Assembly: GCA_964291265.2 (NCBI GenBank)
Contig: OZ219747.1
Coordinates: forward strand, 3,744,001 to 3,808,000
Source: Alphaproteobacteria bacterium
GTDB lineage: Bacteria > Pseudomonadota > Alphaproteobacteria > SP197
Direction: 5' to 3'
Length of the DNA stretch: 64,000 nucleotides
Shown: positions 17,036 to 31,552 of the stretch, one piece after another
How the letters are laid out: every line of letters begins with the position of its first letter
Position numbering within the stretch: position 1 is the stretch's first letter
Translations under genes and position numbers: made by a program
Notes under the pieces: generated by a model
Databases searched by the model: none
Told to the model about the DNA's origin: nothing
What the model saw: only the letters and a program-made list of their open reading frames with translations

Positions 17036-18954
17036 GTCGCGGTAGGGATGCGCATTGCTGCGCACCCCCCGCACAGATCCGGACATGGACGTTAATCCAT
17101 CCGGCTCCTACCTCGGGTGCTTGACGGTAAACCGCTGGTCCGGCCATGGGTGGCGGATGGAGACGCGCGGCCAAAGAAGCTCGGTCATGCGCTCCAATCG
17201 CTTCCAGTCAAAGCAGTGGCGCTGGGAGCGGCGGCGGATCGCTCGCAGCCATAGGCGTTGCAGCCTTTGGCGGAACGTGCGCAGCCATCGGGTCGACCCC
17301 GGAACGGCGAAGTAGTTGGACCAGCCATTGACAACTCGCCCAAGCCACATGCCGACCTCCCATATGTCGTGATGCCGTCGATTGCGAAGCACCTCCTCGA
17401 TGCGCGCCAGGGTCCTTGCGACCCGTTTTGCGACCGGCTTGCGACCAAGCCTGAAGCGTCCTCTCCGGGTCTCCGTGCAGAAGTGCGTGAAGCCCAGGAA
17501 GTCGAACGTCTCCGGCCTGCCCGCCCCGCGAGATCGCCGGTTCGCCTTGGCAAACCGTCCAAACTCAACGAGACGGGTCTTGTCCGGGTGAAGGGTGAGA
17601 CCAAAGCGGTCCAGCCTCTCCCGAACGTCGCGAAGGTATGTCTCCGCATCCCGCTTATGCTGGAACCCGACCACAATATCGTCCGCGTAGCGGACAATGA
17701 TCGCTTTACCGTTCGGAACCTTCGGACGCCATGCCTTGTGAAACCACAGATCGAGCACGTAGTGCAGAAACACGTTCGCCAGGCAGGGGCTGACAATGGC
17801 GCCCTGAGGCGTGCCCGCACCGGTGTCGCTCCATGATCCGTCGGTCATGACGCCAGCGTTCAGCCACTTGCGGATCAGACGGATCACCCGCCTGTCGCCA
17901 ATGCGATGCTCCAGGAACTTGATCAACCAATCCCTCGGGATTGTGTCGAAGTACCCCTGAATGTCCGCGTCGACTATCCAGTTGACCTTGCGCCGCTCGA
18001 TCCCGAACGCCAGGGCGTCGAGAGCGTCATGCGCCCCTCGGCCCGGTCGGAACCCGTAGCTGAAGCCAAGGAACTCCACCTCATAAATCGGTGTCAGGAT
18101 CACATCCACAACCGCCTTCTGGACGATCTTGTCCTCCAGTGCGGCAATCCCGAGCGGTCGTGTCCCGCCGTCCGGCTTGGGTATCTCAACCCGCCGAACC
18201 GGCGGCGCCCGGTACGCTCCCCCACGATGCAGGCGCGAGTGCAGATCAAGCAAGCGCTCGTCCAGACCCTCGCCATACGCCGCCCACGTCACGCCGTCGA
18301 CACCTGCCGAGGCTTCCTTCTTCAAACCGAAGTAGGCCGCCCGGAGCGCGTCCGGCGTAATGTGATGGAAGAGTGCAGTGAGACGCTCCTTCGGGTTCCT
18401 CTCTGCAGCTTCCCGTATCCGGTCCGCCGCCTGTGGCACACTTGCCCGACACTGCGTTCGGTGCGTGCTTTGGCGTCCCGGATTCCCCTTGGTTGAGGCC
18501 CTTTCCTCCAGCGACTCCGCAGAAGCTGACGCTCCCTTGTTCGCCGCCTTCACCGGTCTTACGGCCCCATCCGACTTCTTCAAACCGTTCCTCATAGGCT
18601 TCGGCTTTCTCCTTTCCCTACACGGTCCCGCCACGACAGGCGGGATAGTTCGAAGACCTCCCAGGGTCCCAACAGAAGGCGTGCGGACGTGCATGGGTTC
18701 TCCGACACCGCGGGGCTCGCCGACATCTCACCAAATCGATGCCTGCGATGTTGCCTTCGACCGATGCGAAAGCCTCGGCACCCCGAACAACGGACTTTTC
18801 GGTGCTCATTAGCCCTGCCCATCCGTACCGCTACCGACGCTTCGCCTGCCCCCTCGCGGGAACCGACGCACGGCTCGCGGAGAAACGTGGTTTGGTTACT
18901 CCTTCGTTTCAGGGGACTTTCACCCCCTACCTTCCGCCAGTTCGCCTGGCACAC
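17036..18954 (-). mobile_element. RT-encoding group II intron (class E-like)
   Basis: 5' end GTGTGCC at 18954; 3' end CCCTACCGCGAC at 17036; DV GAGCCGGATGGATTAACGTCCATGTCCGGATC; EBS1/EBS2-like sites match exon GATGCG and GGACT. Confidence 0.92.
17108..18595 (-). CDS. ltrA: group II intron reverse transcriptase/maturase without endonuclease domain
   Basis: GVDG, IPKPDGGTRPLGI, FSYGFRPGR, DADIQGYFD, GTPQG, RYADD, FDFLGF, domain X; start ATG at 18595 chosen by family resemblance. Confidence 0.93.
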   Translation of the reverse strand: MRNGLKKSDGAVRPVKAANKGASASAESLEERASTKGNPGRQSTHRTQCRASVPQAADRIREAAERNPKERLTALFHHITPDALRAAYFGLKKEASAGVDGVTWAAYGEGLDERLLDLHSRLHRGGAYRAPPVRRVEIPKPDGGTRPLGIAALEDKIVQKAVVDVILTPIYEVEFLGFSYGFRPGRGAHDALDALAFGIERRKVNWIVDADIQGYFDTIPRDWLIKFLEHRIGDRRVIRLIRKWLNAGVMTDGSWSDTGAGTPQGAIVSPCLANVFLHYVLDLWFHKAWRPKVPNGKAIIVRYADDIVVGFQHKRDAETYLRDVRERLDRFGLTLHPDKTRLVEFGRFAKANRRSRGAGRPETFDFLGFTHFCTETRRGRFRLGRKPVAKRVARTLARIEEVLRNRRHHDIWEVGMWLGRVVNGWSNYFAVPGSTRWLRTFRQRLQRLWLRAIRRRSQRHCFDWKRLERMTELLWPRVSIRHPWPDQRFTVKHPR

Positions 18955-21417: not shown

Positions 21418-22010
21418 GGGCGTGAGTCTGGCATGGCGATGTTGTGATCGCTCGGCTGATCCCGTTTATGCGGCGCGCTTGGGGGCGTAGCCGGGACAGT
21501 TGTTGTCGTTGGCCGGGGTATCGGCCTTGCCCATGAGGGCATTCCATGCGCGGTCGAAGCGTCCGGATTTGATGAGGGCGCGTACGGTGAGGACGGCCTG
21601 GCCGCCGTGGATGCGCCATCGCATGCCGGAGCGCTTCATTCAACCGTGTGACGAGTATTTTGTTGGCGGCCTCGACGACGCCCGAGCCGATGGCGACGCC
21701 GCGGTCGCTGAGGTGGCGGTATCGCATGCGCTTGCGGTGCTTGCGGAAGAAGGCGAGTTCGCGCTCGACGGCGTTGCGCGCGGCGCGGTTGCTGCCTGCC
21801 TTGTCGCGCAGATAGCGCAGCGCCCTTATGACCCTGGCGCTGCCATGCGGATCGTGTCGCAGGGTATGGCGACAAGTCTCGAACCAGTTGGGATCGACGG
21901 CATGGTCGGAGGCTGTGCGGAGATGCTCGCAGGCATGCCGGAAGTCGACGGCTTGCGCTTCGGGCGAGAGGCTCTCCAGGAAGGTCCGGTTGTCGGGGGC
22001 GCCGTCGGCT
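21418..22010 (-). pseudogene. ISKra4-family transposase 3' remnant (divergent copy)
   Basis: Terminus GGGCGTGAGT at 21418; MRYRHL..GVAIGSGVVEAANKILV and DFRHACEHL-like motifs, frameshifted. Confidence 0.75.
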
Positions 22011-22232
22011 GTACCTGTCGCTCGGGCGGCGCATCATGTGAAGCGGAGCCATCTGTACCCCGTGACGCGGTATCATATTGATCTGTTGGGCAGCGTCGGC
22101 GACGCTGGAATGGTGGCACCGCGATCTACGGGATCCTTCCCCGCCCGAACCGTGTCGGCCAAGTATGCAGTGGTATTCGTAGAGCCGAGGCGGCAAACTG
22201 TATCCGCGTTGGCAGCCAGGGATTCAGACTAT

Positions 22233-23590
<1,358 letters not shown>

Positions 23591-25210
23591 CAGGGCTTTT
23601 CTTTTGTCGTCCCGGCGCTCGGCGCACGCAGGCTGATCTTTGGGGTGGACATCCCGTTTTCGCTGTGGCAGTGTGCCGGCATGACGATGCTTGCGACCCC
23701 GGATTCCCCTATCGACCTTCGCGAGGTGACGGTGCGCCCGACCCGTGGCGCACGTGAGCACCGGCTCTGGGATCGTCTGGTCAAGGAGCATCACTACCTG
23801 CGGTTTCACGGCATCATCGGCAAGGGCCTGCGCCATGTCGCCCTGCACGGCGAGACCTGGGTGGCGCTGGTCGGCTGGCAGCCGGGCTCGTTCAAGCTTG
23901 CTGCACGCGACCGCTGGATCGGCTGGACTGCGGAGCAGCAGTTCCGCCGCCTGCATCTGATCGCGAACAATTCCCGGTTCGTCATTCTTGGCCCGAGAGG
24001 GGTGCCGAACCTGGCGTCCCGCGTGCTCGGCCTGAGCCTTCGGCGGCTGTCCGCCGACATTGAGGCTGCGCACGGATACCCAGTGTTCCTCGCGGAGACG
24101 TTCGTCGACATCAAGCGCTTCGCCGGAACCTGCTATCGCGCGGCGAACTGGCGCTCGCTGGGATTGACGCGCGGCTTCGGTCGCAAGCCCGGCGGCGCCG
24201 CACGCTTCCGTCACCACGGCCAGCCCAAGGAGATCTTCATGTACGAACTGACCGACGATGCCGCCGAGGCGCTGAGCCGGGACGCGATCCCGGAGAGCTG
24301 GAACGCGGAGCAGCACGACCAAGCCGGACCGATGGCCGCGTCCGGGCTGCGCAGTCTGTTCGCCTGCCTGGGCGAGGTGCCCGAGTGCCGCAAGCCCCGG
24401 GGCAAGCGCTATCCGCTGAGAACCATTCTCGCGATCGCCGTCGCAGCCCGGCTCGCCGGCTACCGCGGCGTGAGCGCATTCGCTCAGTTCGCCGCCCTGC
24501 TCACCCAGGAACAGCTGGCGGCGGTGGGTGCGTTCTACAGCCCGTCGAAGAAGCGCTACACGGCGCCCACGTCCACAACCTTCCACAGCATCCTCGCCAA
24601 CCTGCCGCCCGAGACCCTGGACCACGCCATCGGCCTGTGGACGGCCCAGCAGGCCGGTGCAGACACACCGCTCGCCATGGACGGCAAGGACATCCGCGGC
24701 GCCTCCAGGCAGACCAAAAACGGGCGGCGGATGATGGTCGCAGCGGTCGAGCACGGAACCGGCATGGTCCTCGGCCAGGTCGAGGTCGACGCGAAGAGCA
24801 ACGAGATCCCCGCCGTGCGGGACCTCGCCAGCAGCATCGACGTCACGGGCCGCATCGTCACCCTGGACGCGATGCACGCTCAGCACGAGACCGCGCAACG
24901 GCTTCTCGAGCGCCGCGCCGACTATGTCATCACGGCGATCAAGGATAACCAGGAGACCATGCTCGACGACCTCAAGGCCATCGACTTCAAGGGCGCGGCT
25001 TCGTTCGAGACACTCGACAAGGGGCACGGACGCATCGAGCGCCGCCGCTGTGCCGTGGTCGACATCTCCGGCGCCGAGTGGGACGGCTACGCCGCTCTCC
25101 ACGGTCACCACCAAGCCATCCGCATCGAGCGCGAACGCGAGATCTGCAAGACCAAAGAACGCAGTGTCGAGACCACCTGGTGCCTCACCTCGCTCGCTCC
25201 CGAACGCGCC

Positions 25211-26986
25211 GTCGGGTAGGCCACTGGCGCGCGTATCCGTAGGCAGAGGCTTTGTCCGTCACCGCTCTTTCGATTGCGGGCGGGGTCGCAGTTCTCCCAT
25301 AGACCACGTTTCCAGCAGTCGGGTAGGCCGCTGGCGCGCGCATCCGTAGGCAGAGGCTTTGTCCGGCACCGCTCTTTCGATTGCGGGCGGGGTCGCAGAA
25401 CTACCATAGACCACGTTTCCAGCAGCCTCCCTAAAATTCCGTACGTCCGGTTTTCCCGGGTACGGCTTCAAGCATCAGGCACCCACTTGGAGTTCGGTGC
25501 GGAGCCTTCCGCCGAACACGCCATGGTCAAGGCTGACCCGACCATACCCACGGCATCTCCGAGCGTTTGCTCCGTCCTTCGACCTTGCAGTCTGTCGGTC
25601 GGTGCCGGTCTCTGAGTACCGACTTGACCTGCCGCATAAGCCACCTGAGCCCTGAGGTCCTCGCTCAGGACGGGTTGTGTTGTCCCGCCCGTCAACGCTT
25701 ACTCGACCTCATCCGCCAGTCAGGAGGACTCCGCGTCCTTTCCCAGTCCTGGTTATAGACGCGGTCCTTGACATTCAAGGGTCACTTCATCCTGTCTGTC
25801 CTCCTCACCTTCCGGCCTTTCACTGCTGTACTGTCCCGGATTGCCGTCGTCTCTACCACGGGGAACCCGATGCGTGCTCCCCAGTTCTTCCGCATCGACT
25901 CTGGCCACCAAGCTGGGGGCAGGCCCTTGGCGTTCCCAACACCCCACAAGTCAGCTTCATGTGGGAAATTTCATTTTCGAGGCTTCGTACAATCGTTCGC
26001 TTTCGCTACGGCCCTCCGGTTCGCTCGCCGCCCTGGCTGACCAGACCAACTGGACACTGCGTTCCAGCCAGCCCACAGCGGCTTCTACATCCCAGCTCGC
26101 TGGCCCAGGGTCACCCCTGTACCAGTGGGATATGCTACGGCGCCAAACTGGGAATTGCGCCGGCGGGACTTTCACCCGCAAGTACAGCAGCTAGACTCGC
26201 TGCACGCCCCCCTAAAATTCCGTACGTCCGGTTTTCCCGGGTACGGCTTCAAGCATCAGGCACCCACTTGGAGTTCGGTGCGGAGCCTTCCGCCGGACAC
26301 GCCATGGTCAAGGCTGACCCAACCATACCCACGGCATCTCCGAGCGTTTGCTCCGTCCTTCGACCTTGCAGTCTGTCGGTCGGTGCCGGTCTCTGAGTAC
26401 CGACTTGACCTGCCGCATAGGCCACCTGAGCCCTGAGGTCCTCGCTCGGGACGGGTTGTGTTGTCCCGCCCGTCAACGCTTACTCGACCTCATCCGCCAG
26501 TCAGGAGGACTCCGCGTCCTTTCCCAATCCTGGTTATAGACGCGGTCCTTGACATTCAAGGGTCACTTCATCCTGTCTGTCCTCCTCACCTTCCGGCCTT
26601 TCACTGCTGTACTGTCCCGGATTGCCGCCGTCTGTACCCCGGGGAACCCGATGCGTGCTCATCAGTTCTTCCGCATCGACTCTGGCCATCGGGCCGGATC
26701 CACGCCCTTGGCATTCCCGACCACCCCACAAATCAGCTTCGTGTGGGAGCATCATTTCGTGGCTTCATCCAATCGTTCGCTTTCGCTACGGCCCTCCGGT
26801 TTGCTCGCCGCCCTGGCTGACCGAACCGGCTGGGCACTGTGTCCCAGCCAGCCCACAACGGCTTTCTACGTCCCAGCTCGCTGGTCCAAGGTCGCCCCTG
26901 AACCAGTGGGATATGCTACGGCGCCAAACTGACAATTGCGCCGGCGGGACTTTCACCCGTAAGTACAGCAGCTAGACTCGCTGCAC
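25211..26986 (-). ncRNA. ORF-less group II intron, outer variant copy 1 (888 nt: 25211-25317 plus 26206-26986)
   Basis: 5' GTGCAGCGAG at 26986; 3' CCTACCCGAC at 25211; DV GAAGCCGTACCCGGGAAAACCGGACGTACGGAATTT; no RT ORF. Confidence 0.88.
25318..26205 (-). ncRNA. ORF-less group II intron, inner variant copy 1 (888 nt)
   Basis: Complete 5' (GTGCAG) and 3' (CCCGAC) ends; DV at about 25433-25469; inserted at the DV-DVI junction of the outer intron. Confidence 0.9.
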
Positions 26987-28762
26987 GTCGGGTAGGCCAC
27001 TGGCGCGCGCATCCGTAGGCAGAGGCTTTGTCCGTCACCGCTCTTTCGATTGCGGGCGGGGTCGCAGTTCTCCCATAGACCACGTTTCCAGCAGTCGGGT
27101 AGGCCGCTGGCGCGCGCATCCGTAGGCAGAGGCTTTGTCCGGCACCGCTCTTTCGATTGCGGGCGGGGTCGCAGAACTACCATAGACCACGTTTCCAGCA
27201 GCCTCCCTAAAATTCCGTACGTCCGGTTTTCCCGGGTACGGCTTCAAGCATCAGGCACCCACTTGGAGTTCGGTGCGGAGCCTTCCGCCGAACACGCCAT
27301 GGTCAAGGCTGACCCGACCATACCCACGGCATCTCCGAGCGTTTGCTCCGTCCTTCGACCTTGCAGTCTGTCGGTCGGTGCCGGTCTCTGAGTACCGACT
27401 TGACCTGCCGCATAAGCCACCTGAGCCCTGAGGTCCTCGCTCAGGACGGGTTGTGTTGTCCCGCCCGTCAACGCTTACTCGACCTCATCCGCCAGTCAGG
27501 AGGACTCCGCGTCCTTTCCCAGTCCTGGTTATAGACGCGGTCCTTGACATTCAAGGGTCACTTCATCCTGTCTGTCCTCCTCACCTTCCGGCCTTTCACT
27601 GCTGTACTGTCCCGGATTGCCGTCGTCTCTACCACGGGGAACCCGATGCGTGCTCCCCAGTTCTTCCGCATCGACTCTGGCCACCAAGCTGGGGGCAGGC
27701 CCTTGGCGTTCCCAACACCCCACAAGTCAGCTTCATGTGGGAAATTTCATTTTCGAGGCTTCGTACAATCGTTCGCTTTCGCTACGGCCCTCCGGTTCGC
27801 TCGCCGCCCTGGCTGACCAGACCAACTGGACACTGCGTTCCAGCCAGCCCACAGCGGCTTCTACATCCCAGCTCGCTGGCCCAGGGTCACCCCTGTACCA
27901 GTGGGATATGCTACGGCGCCAAACTGGGAATTGCGCCGGCGGGACTTTCACCCGCAAGTACAGCAGCTAGACTCGCTGCACGCCCCCCTAAAATTCCGTA
28001 CGTCCGGTTTTCCCGGGTACGGCTTCAAGCATCAGGCACCCACTTGGAGTTCGGTGCGGAGCCTTCCGCCGGACACGCCATGGTCAAGGCTGACCCAACC
28101 ATACCCACGGCATCTCCGAGCGTTTGCTCCGTCCTTCGACCTTGCAGTCTGTCGGTCGGTGCCGGTCTCTGAGTACCGACTTGACCTGCCGCATAGGCCA
28201 CCTGAGCCCTGAGGTCCTCGCTCGGGACGGGTTGTGTTGTCCCGCCCGTCAACGCTTACTCGACCTCATCCGCCAGTCAGGAGGACTCCGCGTCCTTTCC
28301 CAATCCTGGTTATAGACGCGGTCCTTGACATTCAAGGGTCACTTCATCCTGTCTGTCCTCCTCACCTTCCGGCCTTTCACTGCTGTACTGTCCCGGATTG
28401 CCGCCGTCTGTACCCCGGGGAACCCGATGCGTGCTCATCAGTTCTTCCGCATCGACTCTGGCCATCGGGCCGGATCCACGCCCTTGGCATTCCCGACCAC
28501 CCCACAAATCAGCTTCGTGTGGGAGCATCATTTCGTGGCTTCATCCAATCGTTCGCTTTCGCTACGGCCCTCCGGTTTGCTCGCCGCCCTGGCTGACCGA
28601 ACCGGTTGGGCACTGCGTCCCAGCCAGCCCACAACGGCTTTCTACGCCCCAGCTCGCTGGTCCAAGGTCGCCCCTGAACCAGTGGGATATGCTACGGCGC
28701 CAAACTGACAATTGCGCCGGCGGGACTTTCACCCGCAAGTACAGCAGCTAGACTCGCTGCAC
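26987..28762 (-). ncRNA. ORF-less group II intron, outer variant copy 2 (26987-27093 plus 27982-28762)
   Basis: Repeat of 25211-26986 at a 1776-bp offset with about 5 substitutions; 5' end abuts the transposase exon at 28763. Confidence 0.88.
27094..27981 (-). ncRNA. ORF-less group II intron, inner variant copy 2 (888 nt)
   Basis: Apparently identical to 25318-26205 (identical overlapping translations). Confidence 0.9.
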
Positions 28763-29123
28763 GGACCCGAGATGCTTCTGGCCCTCGTGCGCGACCACTG
28801 GGTCATCGAAAATCGACTCCACTACGTACGCGACTTCACCTACGACGAGGACCGCTGCAGGGTCCATGTGCGCCATCTGCCACGCAACCTCTCCTGCCTG
28901 ACAAACGCCGCCATCGCCATCGTGCGCTGCGGCGGACATTTCGACTATATGCCCGAAGCCAACCGGCACTACGCCGCCCGCGCCCAGGACGCGCTCGACG
29001 CTATCCTCATCCCGCCCGGCGGATGAACCTTCGCTCCTGACCCCGCGCCACAAGCCGGGAACGCGCCGCCTGACGGCGCAACAGGACAGCTCTGTTCGCA
29101 CACTCGAAAAAACGTGCCTAGTA

Positions 29124-31552
29124 CTGCCCTTTAGTCATAAATCGTGCTGGACAAGATGATTCGGATGGTGCACCCTGCCCTGCATGGAAGCACACATTCC
29201 GATCAAACGTGTCCTTGAGGACCAGCTCGATCGCCTGCAGTCGATCGTCACCGAGAGCGGCGATAGTAGTCAAAACCGCCTGGCGCTGGAAGTGTGCCGG
29301 CACTTCGGCCTGCGGGACGCACGGGGACGCGAGCGGGTATCGAGCTGTGTCGTGGCCCTGAAGCAGCTGGCATCGCAGGGCAGGATCGAGGGCTTGCCGG
29401 AGCCCTCCGGTCAGCGGCGTCGGGCAACGCCCCGCCGGCTCGGCGAGGCGGTGGAGAAGCCGCGTGATGTGCCGGCGAGCGTGGCGGCGATCCAGGGTCT
29501 GCGGATCCTGCTGGTGCGCACGGATGCCGAACGGGCGCTCTGGAACGAACTGATGGCGCGGGAGCACTTTCTCGGCGCTCCCATTCTGGCCGGTCATCAG
29601 CTGCGCTATCTGGTGGATTCCGCTCACGGCTGTCTCGGCGGTTTCGGCTTTGCCGCAGCGGCGCTGAAGGTGGCGGATCGGGATGCCTGGATCGGCTGGG
29701 ATGCCGACCGGCGTCGTGCGGAGCGACACCGGGTGCTGTCGATGAGCCGGTTTCTGATCCGGGTGCCGGTTGCGAACCTTGCGTCGAAGACGCTGTCGAT
29801 GTGCCTGTCTCGCCTGGGCGCCGATGTTGCGCAGCGCTACGGGTTCCTGCCATGGCTGGTCGAGACCTATGTCGACCCGACGCGCGACGGTGCGAGCCTG
29901 CGGGCGGCGAACTGGCAGCTCGTGGGGTTCACCCGGGGCCGAGGCCGTCAGGACCGCGCGCGCGAGATGGCCGAGAGCGTCAAGGCCGTGTACATGTACG
30001 TTCTGGACCGGGACTGGCGGCACAAGCTGGGGGTGGCGGAGCCGATGCCGGCCCTGTCCCCGGGGGAGGGTCTGGACGCCTCGGCGTGGGCGCACCACGA
30101 GTTCGGGGGAGCGCCGATCGGCGACCGGCGTCTGAGTGCGCGCCTGGTGGAGATTGCACGAAGACAGGGAGAGAGTCCGATGTCGTCCTACAGCGGTCTG
30201 GCGCGCCCGGATCCTGCCGGTGTCCGGGCCTATTATCGGTTCCTGGATCAGCCGGAGACGTCGGCGGTGACCCCGGCGAACATCCTGGCGCCGCACCGTC
30301 AACGAACGGTGCAGCGGATGTGCGGCCAGCGGGTGGCGTTGTGCATTCAGGACGGGACGGACCTGAACTTCGCGACCCGTCCGGGCTGCGACGGTCTGGG
30401 CATCATCGGCACGAACCAGACGGCCTCGCAGACCCTGGGCCTGCACCTGCACGCCAGCTACGTTGTCAGCGGCGAAGGCCTGCCGCTGGGGGTGGCGCGT
30501 CTTGCCTTCGACGCTCCTCCCCGCCCCCGGGCAAAGACCGGTTCGGGCGAGGATGTCGAGATGTCCCGGCGCAAGTCGCAGCGCTGGCTCGACGGTCTCG
30601 ACGACATCGCGGACCTCGCGGCCCGGACGACCGGGGTGAAGGTCGTGTGCGTGATGGACCGGGAAGCGGACTTCTTCGAACTGTTCGACCGGTGCCGGCA
30701 GCATCGCCGTCTGTCGATGCTGGTGCGGGCTCGACATGACCGGGTTCTCAAGCGCGGGGCTGCGAAGCTGTTCACCCGACTACGTACGTCTGCCTGCCGC
30801 GGCACCATGCAGATCGACATACCCCGCCTGACGGCCCGGCCGAAGTCCTCGGGGCGCAAGAAGCAGCCCGGCCGCACTGCCCGGCGGAACGCGGTGCTGG
30901 AGTTGCGCTGGTTGTCGACCACGCTGCCGGCGACCGCTGGCTGCCCCGATGCCGCGCCCGTGGCCGTGACCGCGCTGCATCTCCTCGAGACGGCCCCGCC
31001 GGCCGGGGAAGCTCCGGTGGAATGGTTCCTGTTGACCGACCTTCCTGTGGACCACGCCGAAGCGGCCCAGGAGATCGTCGGCTGGTACGCGCTGCGCTGG
31101 CGGATCGAATGCTGGTTCCGGGTGCTGAAGTCCGGCTGCCGGGTGGAGCACCTGGCGACGCGCAAGGCCTGCCGCCTGGAACGGCAGATCACCATCCACG
31201 CCGTGATCGCCTGGCGTCTTGCCCTGATGACCCTGCTCGGGCGGGATGTGCCGACGATGAAGCCCGACTGCCTGTTCTCGGACCTGGAACTCCGCTTCCT
31301 CGGCGACTATGCCCGGCGATACCGGCTGGACCCGCCCGACACGCTGGGGGCGGCGGTGAAGCTGGTGGCGATCCTCGGCGGGTATCTGGACCGCAAGCAT
31401 GATCCGGCGCCGGGCAACCAGACGATGTGGCATGGCTATCCGCGACTGGCCACCGCTGCCCTGGCCTATGAATGCCTGCTCGAGGCCCTCGATCTGGATC
31501 CGACGTCGGAAGGACACGATCACGTCCTGCACGATTTGTGACTAATAGGTAG
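29124..31552 (+). mobile_element. IS4-family element encoding a DUF4338-fused transposase
   Basis: 24-bp IRs CTGCCCTTTAGTCATAAATCGTGC / CTACCTATTAGTCACAAATCGTGC; 8-bp TSD GCCTAGTA (29116-29123, 31553-31560). Confidence 0.9.
29184..31541 (+). CDS. DUF4338/DruA-like domain fused to IS4 transposase, 785 aa
   Basis: HFLG..GHQLRYL..RDAWIGW..SRFLIR..NLAS..ETYVD..RAANW, then IGDRRLSARL, IQDGTDL, MDREAD, YALRWRIECWFRVLKSG. Confidence 0.87.
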   Translation: MEAHIPIKRVLEDQLDRLQSIVTESGDSSQNRLALEVCRHFGLRDARGRERVSSCVVALKQLASQGRIEGLPEPSGQRRRATPRRLGEAVEKPRDVPASVAAIQGLRILLVRTDAERALWNELMAREHFLGAPILAGHQLRYLVDSAHGCLGGFGFAAAALKVADRDAWIGWDADRRRAERHRVLSMSRFLIRVPVANLASKTLSMCLSRLGADVAQRYGFLPWLVETYVDPTRDGASLRAANWQLVGFTRGRGRQDRAREMAESVKAVYMYVLDRDWRHKLGVAEPMPALSPGEGLDASAWAHHEFGGAPIGDRRLSARLVEIARRQGESPMSSYSGLARPDPAGVRAYYRFLDQPETSAVTPANILAPHRQRTVQRMCGQRVALCIQDGTDLNFATRPGCDGLGIIGTNQTASQTLGLHLHASYVVSGEGLPLGVARLAFDAPPRPRAKTGSGEDVEMSRRKSQRWLDGLDDIADLAARTTGVKVVCVMDREADFFELFDRCRQHRRLSMLVRARHDRVLKRGAAKLFTRLRTSACRGTMQIDIPRLTARPKSSGRKKQPGRTARRNAVLELRWLSTTLPATAGCPDAAPVAVTALHLLETAPPAGEAPVEWFLLTDLPVDHAEAAQEIVGWYALRWRIECWFRVLKSGCRVEHLATRKACRLERQITIHAVIAWRLALMTLLGRDVPTMKPDCLFSDLELRFLGDYARRYRLDPPDTLGAAVKLVAILGGYLDRKHDPAPGNQTMWHGYPRLATAALAYECLLEALDLDPTSEGHDHVLHDL

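Follow-up and report, generated by a model that had tools for sequence, protein, structure and literature searches.

An array of nested and tandem group II introns lacking ORFs within an alphaproteobacterial transposase gene and its possible dependence on a class E reverse transcriptase

The window analyzed here, the whole stretch of 64,000 nt that was studied, stems from an alphaproteobacterium (GTDB lineage SP197; assembly GCA_964291265.2, contig OZ219747.1, positions 3,744,001 to 3,808,000 of the forward strand), whose genome, designated G000, consists of two contigs and is 100% complete. At positions 25211-28762 a transposase gene is interrupted by an insert of 3,552 nt that contains four group II introns without an open reading frame (ORF). 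They are oriented antisense to the transposase gene and arranged as (A[B])(A[B]), i.e., two tandem copies of an outer intron A, each of which harbors an inner intron B. Designations beginning with L or G refer to the other loci and genomes compared. With D denoting the intron domains, the region is composed as follows:

23567..25210, plus strand: 5' part of the host transposase gene (Pfam: DruA-like N-terminus, DDE_Tnp_1_assoc, DDE_Tnp_1)
25211..25317, minus strand: outer intron A2, nt 782-888, with the bulged branch A at 25217
25318..26205, minus strand: inner intron B2, 888 nt
26206..26986, minus strand: outer intron A2, nt 1-781, the initial G of which serves as intron-binding site 3 (IBS3) for the upstream copy A1
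26987..27093, minus strand: outer intron A1, nt 782-888, i.e., the remainder of DVI, with the bulged branch A at 26993
27094..27981, minus strand: inner intron B1, 888 nt; the five remaining B copies of the genome have exactly its sequence
27982..28762, minus strand: outer intron A1, nt 1-781, comprising DI to DV and the first strand of DVI
27992..28024, minus strand: DV of A1 with the AGC catalytic triad, located in a 15-member alignment
28763..29026, plus strand: 3' part of the host transposase gene (GPEMLL...), which on the minus strand constitutes the 5' exon of A1

Structure of the array and identity of the introns

The minus strand of the insert features four GTGCAGCGAG starts (at 28762, 27981, 26986 and 26205) and four CCTACCCGAC ends (at 27094, 26987, 25318 and 25211), which resolve into the elements A1, B1, A2 and B2 of 888 nt each, in the order A1[B1] followed by A2[B2]. 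When the insert is taken out, a single transposase frame of 635 codons results that reads LAPERA/GPEMLL without duplication, and because the uninterrupted junction is present in eight other transposase copies of the genome, the insert junction is proven by eight empty alleles. Intron B resides between nt 781 and 782 of the outer intron, in the 5' strand of the basal stem of DVI, and a B-free copy of A elsewhere in the genome confirms this position as the empty site. An initial annotation, made from the sequence alone, had described a duplication-free split of the transposase at this point, two 888-nt elements in each unit of 1776 bp and an inner element inside the outer one, and was correct in all three respects. 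A and B are distinct variants with 94% identity; A1 and A2 differ at five positions and B1 equals B2. A complete intron lies precisely inside another one and carries exon-binding sites (EBS) matching its host intron, as expected of a twintron, and we regard it as practically certain that both the group II introns and their nesting are real. The interrupted gene itself is presumably an ISAs1 transposase.

For the secondary structure we aligned 15 family members, whose identity amounts to 72-96% where it was compared, and left out the OZ219790/1 loci with their many small deletions. The RNAalifold consensus places DI at nt 7-393, DII at 394-491, DIII at 496-552, DIV at 555-735, DV at about 739-771 and DVI at 775-885, the domains being named by our reading of the fold in terms of the usual group II structure. 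Two-sided compensatory changes occur in all six domains, and folding of the single sequence gave z = -3.99. DV exhibits the AGC catalytic triad with 224 of 225 helix cells paired over the 15 members, while DVI, 111 nt in length, has a bulged A at nt 882 (-7), a 3' end AC and well-paired basal stems (103/105 and 87/90). The catalytic triad and the long DVI described at the outset are recovered, as is the six-domain fold suggested there as a check. Among the Rfam models put forward for verification, RF02003 (group-II-D1D4-4) matches each of the four elements with 65-68 bits (cut-off 49); RF00029 (Intron_gpII) remained without a match at its gathering cut-off and also at E ≤ 5 on 1 kb, which is why the DV/DVI fold rests on the 15-member alignment. 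As noted before, the 5' end departs from the GUGYG consensus: it reads GUGCAG in the four elements and in most relatives, and GUACAG and GCGCAG are also seen. Judged by DV, DVI, the six domains and exon pairing, the elements are group II introns of the IIB type and are predicted to splice.

Assignment to a class is less straightforward. An RF02003-type DI and a long DVI are traits of class F RNA, although the likeness is remote: the family profile matches class F DI and DV/DVI with at most 23 bits (about 75% identity over 69 nt; class F reference L181, i.e., Ni.ha.I1, class F/g3) and hardly matches class E at all. The elements contain neither an ORF nor a reverse transcriptase (RT), in keeping with the initial description, and as they thus lack a class F intron-encoded protein (IEP) they are not filed as class F. 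Neither a class E ribozyme (RF02005) nor a class E IEP was found in them.

Exon guides, retargeting of B and spread of the copies

Guides were located by a blind covariation scan of about 50 aligned elements against their flanks, leaving out five parsed elements longer than 910 nt (one parse error and four with inserts lacking YADD). Exon positions -1 to -5 map to nt 286-290, which are 85-100% paired with four to six pair types, and exon position +1 maps to nt 353 (94% paired); EBS3 had first been surmised near nt 323-326, a position ruled out by covariation. EBS2 was read by eye in the G000 variants and reached only 60-71% in the blind test because its register shifts. Within the array the following guides were identified:

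28410, minus strand: EBS3 of A1, C
28472..28477, minus strand: EBS1 of A1, GGAUCC, from covariation, pairing with IBS1 GGGUCC (28763-28768)
28524-28529, minus strand: EBS2 of A1, GAUGCU, pairing with AGCAUC (28771-28776)
27629, minus strand: EBS3 of B1, G
27691..27696, minus strand: EBS1 of B1, GCCCCC, pairing with GGGGGC of A1 (27982-27987)
27741-27749, minus strand: EBS2 of B1, UGAAAUUUC, pairing with A1 27989-27997 at the DV/DVI junction
27201..27216, minus strand: DV/DVI junction of B1 itself, GGGAGGC and not GGGGGGC

It is mainly in these guides that A and B differ. EBS1 and EBS2 of A match the site in the transposase gene as well as three further loci, with imperfect pairing at one of the three, and a variant A' has different EBS sequences that fit its own insertion site. 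EBS2 of B matches GGAAUUUUA, which precedes GGGGGC at the DV/DVI junction of A. The basal DVI helices comprise nt 775-781/878-885 and 782-787/872-877, and B is inserted between them, four pairs above the branch A. We consider it very probable that B is an invader of A's branch helix that arose by retargeting of its guides, homing to the DV/DVI junction by means of EBS1 and EBS2. Since B splits the basal stem of DVI, the branch helix of A presumably cannot form until B is out, so that B would splice first, before A can branch. Because of this order, A[B] would be unable to retrohome as a unit and each B would have arrived separately.

The junction of B itself is altered in such a way that the DVI pair is kept (G.U changed to A-U) but a mismatch to B's EBS1 arises, which suggests that B avoids its own site. 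An independent twintron at the same DV/DVI site was found in a Silicimonas metagenome-assembled genome (L071), the elements of which are about 77% identical to A; it uses EBS1 GUCCCC, and its inner copy shows the same G-to-A change at this place. However, as the change also occurs in L052, L089 and L090, members not known to target the DV/DVI site, self-avoidance by B is only suggestive. Another variant EBS1, present in assembly CAXXGT (L042, L046, L047, L050, L054, L055 and L075), matches the family's own DIVa, the first part of DIV, at nt 584, just 5' of the hairpin described below, and gives rise to double and apparently triple nests.

G000 contains seven A-type copies, six of them holding B. 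The six B copies are 100% identical, whereas among their A hosts five close ones show 4-8 nt of difference and the sixth deviates by 36-40 nt, and on account of this identity of B in diverged hosts we conclude that B invaded dispersed A copies individually. At the tandem junction, EBS3 of A is C and the resident A begins with the complementary G, which fits an origin of the tandem by re-insertion of A at the 5' junction of a resident copy; the first A would have entered the transposase gene in antisense orientation via EBS1, EBS2 and EBS3. B, with G as EBS3, forms no B-B tandem at any of six sites, and a triple tandem in another genome (L049) has EBS3 C, as does A. Twelve copies from Binatia with EBS3 C are without tandems, so that C at this position permits but does not force tandem formation.

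Near-identity of the two 1,776-nt units could also be explained if the tandem or A[B] had spread at the DNA level, through duplication, gene conversion or carriage by insertion sequences (IS), or resulted from mis-assembly, and not from independent retrohoming; the B-free A, which sits at the same transposase site in disfavored orientation, may have been carried by an IS. All five differences between the two units, however, fall into A and none into B, and A[B] is present at five loci with unrelated flanks, at four of which both IBS1 and IBS2 are well matched. As the junction moreover fits the reported pairing of EBS3 with the first G (PMC12584367) and the triple tandem shares EBS3 C, we deem an origin at the DNA level highly improbable.

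The orientation of the copies was counted by hand and termed favored when the intron strand equals the leading-strand sequence. Judging from GC skew, replication starts near 0.72 Mb and ends near 3.29 Mb, and the favored orientation is found for 15/16 class E introns, 13/15 class E derivatives with deleted ORF (delta-ORF), six of seven A and all six B copies. The disfavored way is faced by the one A that lacks B and by all eight empty transposase sites. The bias resembles the preference for the lagging-strand template of endonuclease-less introns such as RmInt1 (PMC8914252), and insertion into this template may be its cause. Neither a suppression of A by B, as a reason for the empty transposase sites, nor a block of B by an IS in DVI is needed, as all eight empty sites and the B-free A, the only A copy so placed, are in the disfavored orientation; the block by the IS may nevertheless apply. 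In summary, EBS-IBS covariation, multiple copies, replication-biased orientation and the lack of an ORF bear out the early proposal of non-autonomous retroelements forming nested and tandem arrays; the retargeted guide of B, the mechanism of the tandem and the RT source go beyond that proposal.

The B-free A itself (L001:2099-4942, G000:C2:3658598-3661441) measures 2,844 nt. It was considered as an ORF-bearing form and rejected, its extra length being due to a DDE transposase element with 10-bp inverted ends and a short duplication that lies 20 nt into DVI. We take this element to be IS1634-like.

An ORF-less lineage and its candidate reverse transcriptase donor

The family extends well beyond G000. 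A genome search with a 20-nt pattern yielded 51 loci in 13 GTDB assemblies, spread over Paracoccaceae, other Alphaproteobacteria and Binatia. Fifty of 55 parsed elements, a count that includes a few overlapping loci, are 820-904 nt long, and a YADD motif between the element ends was found in none of the 55. Members nest in one another at nt 194, 584, 619 and 769-781 and are also located in DIII of class E introns and in class E RT genes (7/12 Binatia copies). A metagenome search for the DV pattern returned at least 120 stretches, 80 of which were fetched; in these 80 loci, of which 42 extend 900 nt or more upstream, no RT was detected upstream of DV, and the end of DIII lies within 420 nt of DV in 54/64 loci. 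An RT downstream is present in five metagenome loci (four class E, one class F), and an RT inside the intron in none of the 51 genome and 80 metagenome loci. RT motifs beside the copies in L045 and L052 belong to class E host introns. A plasmid blastn search, three viral scans, one genome and one metagenome pattern search remained blank.

RTs in G000 were searched for by tblastn, with PF00078 and PF08388 and with a class F query. There are 18 RVT_1 and 18 GIIM matches; the intact RTs number 16 and belong to a single family, and fragments are present besides. This search revealed no intact cognate RT of the same class and nothing above 48% identity to class F RTs. RT classes other than E and F carry presumed labels. 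The intact RTs cluster with L180, which shares 98.8% identity with an intron that the supplement of PMC8919778 assigns to class E, and on this basis class E is the only source of intact RT in G000. One copy lies within the window, and both it and the array contain a hairpin at the beginning of DIV:

17036..18952, minus strand: full-length class E group II intron of 1,917 nt with RT/maturase, one of 16 near-identical RT-bearing copies and candidate RT donor
18431-18473, minus strand: DIVa hairpin of this class E intron, loop ACGCAGUG
28161..28180, minus strand: DIVa hairpin of A1 with the 8-nt loop ACUCAGAG
27380-27399, 26385-26404 and 25604-25623, minus strand: equivalent hairpins of B1, A2 and B2

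This hairpin, with the octaloop RCNCAG(A/U)R, occurs in 15/15 family members; loop positions C2, C4, A5 and G6 are invariant over covarying stems and equal the class E consensus. Class E introns feature it 270 nt before the IPK motif of the RT, again on a covarying stem. Applying a strict criterion defined in this analysis, we found it before the RT in 13/15 class E1 and 3/9 class E2 introns (7/9 when relaxed), but in 0/17 class F introns and 0/6 introns of other classes; the background of the pattern in the genome is 0.055 per kb per strand. In the wider metagenome lineage it is present in 26/66 loci (12/38 clusters), compared with a mean of 1.0 and a maximum of 5 after shuffling by dinucleotide tokens, an approximation. 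A covariance model of DIVa built from class E introns only gave full-length matches (E<0.05) at the hairpin position in 7 of the 45 metagenome loci (out of 80) submitted to it, hairpin-only matches of 12-16 bits in 5/12 GTDB loci, and full-length matches inside none of 22 control introns. Strong matches in control loci were traced to flanking class E introns (L083, L145) or, in L143, to a flanking gene, a false positive of 20 bits.

DIVa is the primary IEP-binding site in the introns studied (PMC4615759), and we infer that the octaloop hairpin is a putative binding site of the class E IEP. Support comes from 15 class E delta-ORF copies in G000 (about 657 nt, 13 of them identical), which retain the hairpin: what is left of them comprises nt 1-550 and the terminal 100 nt, and the deletion begins just after it. 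That the ORF-less lineage borrows the class E RT through this hairpin appears to us slightly better than an even proposition, judged from sequence comparison. The class F-type ribozyme would recruit the class E RT/maturase via the DIVa loop, and the lineage would represent a parasite of another intron class resembling short interspersed nuclear elements (SINEs), with B as parasite of the parasite.

Several observations weigh against such borrowing. The hairpin is absent from 40/66 loci of the wider lineage (26/38 clusters), which have other DIVa tips, and A and B match the class E model in the upper hairpin only, with 11 bits and an E of 1.3 on 64 kb, a score that by itself lacks significance. 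IEPs are described as generally specific, with heterologous pairs mostly losing mobility (PMC4615759). G000 itself contains a truncated non-E RT (C2:1340063-1340566) that could once have served. Among 22 congeners, eight have family DNA, seven of which contain class E and four class F RT sequences, but these counts lack independence, since the genomes are related to one another and rich in introns. G002 has a full-length family member, yet its intact RTs are of the E2 type with a different loop; G013 has a family fragment and class F RTs only, and the carriers G061, G062, G064 and G065 hold intact class F RTs besides.

It is here that ordinary delta-ORF derivatives of a class F-type intron, mobilized in trans by a cognate class F RT, have to be weighed. 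Such an RT might have been lost, or reside on an unassembled replicon or in a co-resident strain, and the octaloop would then reflect shared ancestry or convergence. The class F-like ribozyme speaks for this, as do the class F RTs in 5/22 congeners and several carrier genomes and the reported rule that a related IEP donor accompanies ORF-less introns in nearly all cases (PMC4424553, PMC2882425). G000, however, in which B spread very recently, is complete and has no class F RT, the similarity of the RNA is remote, none of 17 class F introns has the hairpin and none of the 80 metagenome loci an RT upstream of DV. A sense-strand ORF remnant was not seen in A or B; weak tblastn matches of class F RTs to DIV are antisense (best E 0.005) and were treated as chance. 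All in all, we judge a class F origin of the mobility unlikely.

Less probable still, in our estimation, is the use of any abundant group II RT, with the hairpin helping some subfamilies without being specific for class E. "Driver" IEPs of relaxed specificity exist (PMC2882425), the strict hairpin is missing in the 26 clusters mentioned and RT content differs between carriers. Against this stand the four invariant loop positions over covarying stems, identical to the class E consensus, and the fact that the published relaxed IEPs act on close relatives only. Taken together, tandem A copies each invaded by B, both probably copied by the RT of an unrelated class E intron, form the explanation that we prefer with some reserve. 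To the combined proposition that a large, old enzyme-less lineage hijacks the RT/maturase of another class by uniting a class F-type ribozyme with a class E hairpin, and that guide variants homing to a sister's branch helix, their own site altered, arose in two divergent sub-lineages, we assign an even chance.

Further observations concern hairpins, RTs and neighboring introns. A second hairpin resides in DI, with loop ACGCAGUG at 28611-28618 (minus strand, A1 nt 145-152) and at the same place in B; this loop is identical to the DIVa loop of the G000 class E intron, A2 has ACACAGUG, and the feature, seen only in the G000/G063 sub-lineage, may be due to chance. Wider subfamilies without octaloop (L197, L205, L217, L264, L215, L225) exhibit other conserved DIVa tips that may be tuned to other RT classes. 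In L045 and L150 (G062) the class E1 RT genes found are split by two introns, one a copy of the family and the other likewise ORF-less; owing to these interruptions the E1 RT of G062 may form only after inner splicing. The ORF-less intron L196:1-980, whose triad reads AAC and which also carries the octaloop hairpin, ends right before the 3' half of a family DV, on a contig without the upstream half, suggesting insertion into the DV loop. The truncated RT of G000 belongs to an intron of another lineage (G000:C2:1339360-1340570, 5' GTGTGC..., 206-codon RT stub) in DIII of a class E copy, and in L037 a family copy is succeeded by a similar element. RT matches spaced about 2.0 kb apart in G064 (C46:77867-82533 and 102399-107065) and G013 (C1:2099217-2102650) suggest tandem arrays of full-length class F introns. 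The many small deletions in L036, L037, L052 and L068 (OZ219790/1) lie between short repeats, run across introns and ORFs and look like an assembly problem. Within the window, many IS elements crowd the region around the array; downstream of the host transposase, another large ORF of transposase-like character (29184-31541) has an N-terminus that by eye looks similar to the DruA-like one of the host transposase, and a type I methyltransferase-like fragment is located at 21828-23252.

Relation to known systems and implications

Publications already describe twintrons whose inner copies are identical (PMC2882425), arrays of nested introns (PMC4424553) and tandems driven by EBS3 (PMC12584367). 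A close parallel is offered by TeI3/TeI4 of Thermosynechococcus elongatus, ORF-less introns that diversified by EBS change, are mobilized in trans and comprise one EBS family homing into its sisters, with identical inner and diverged outer copies (PMC2882425). There, as far as that account goes, the inner intron is located in DIV where the ORF starts, remnants of ORFs are plainly visible and the RT donors are close relatives of the same class, whereas in the present case both partners are ORF-less, the site is the basal stem of DVI, no remnant was seen and no RT of the same class was found. As neither ORF remnants nor a closely related ORF-bearing intron are present in G000, A and B do not qualify as delta-ORF derivatives of the TeI3 type. 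In EcKTE56.groEL a tandem copy likewise arises at the 5' junction by pairing of EBS3 with the first G of the resident; the reported case involves a U.G wobble and a laboratory assay (PMC12584367), unlike the C-G pair in a natural genome described here, where the copies were then invaded by B. Repeated homing of introns, some of them ORF-less, into introns is known from Methanosarcina acetivorans (via PMC4424553), where going by the paper's title the targets are intron ORFs and not a ribozyme branch helix. Nesting in DVI is not unprecedented, as in a euglenid twintron 3 nt separate the insertion from the 3' splice site (PMC5572947).

With class F introns of groups g2-g5 such as Ni.ha.I1 (PMC3552965) the family shares the RF02003-type DI, the long DVI and the best profile matches; it differs by the lack of an IEP and by the DIVa octaloop, which is missing from 17/17 class F introns. 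With class E (reference NC_014718 356996-358907, supplement of PMC8919778) it has the strand bias in common and, as far as loop and upper stem go, the DIVa hairpin with loop RCNCAGNN, and class E introns are frequent insertion targets of the family; they differ by another ribozyme (RF02005, short DVI) and by encoding their own RT. In the titles and abstract openings covered by our literature searches, we found neither an ORF-less lineage using the RT of another class nor a guide of a bacterial intron directed to the stem of DVI. Already known are twintrons, tandems and the mobilization in trans of introns without ORF; new are the hairpin match and the DVI-targeting, apparently self-avoiding guide.

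According to reviews, ribozyme and RT co-evolve with no extensive exchange across classes, and bacteria seldom harbor ORF-less introns, which rely on close relatives (PMC4424553). This stated rarity is contradicted by a widespread lineage without ORFs that escapes RF00029-based pipelines. If a 20-nt hairpin suffices to couple a foreign ribozyme to an RT, the specificity of the RT would be modular, which would bear on how one maturase can serve many introns and on the design of compact targetrons. If true, the lineage would be the group II counterpart of SINEs riding on long interspersed nuclear elements (LINEs).

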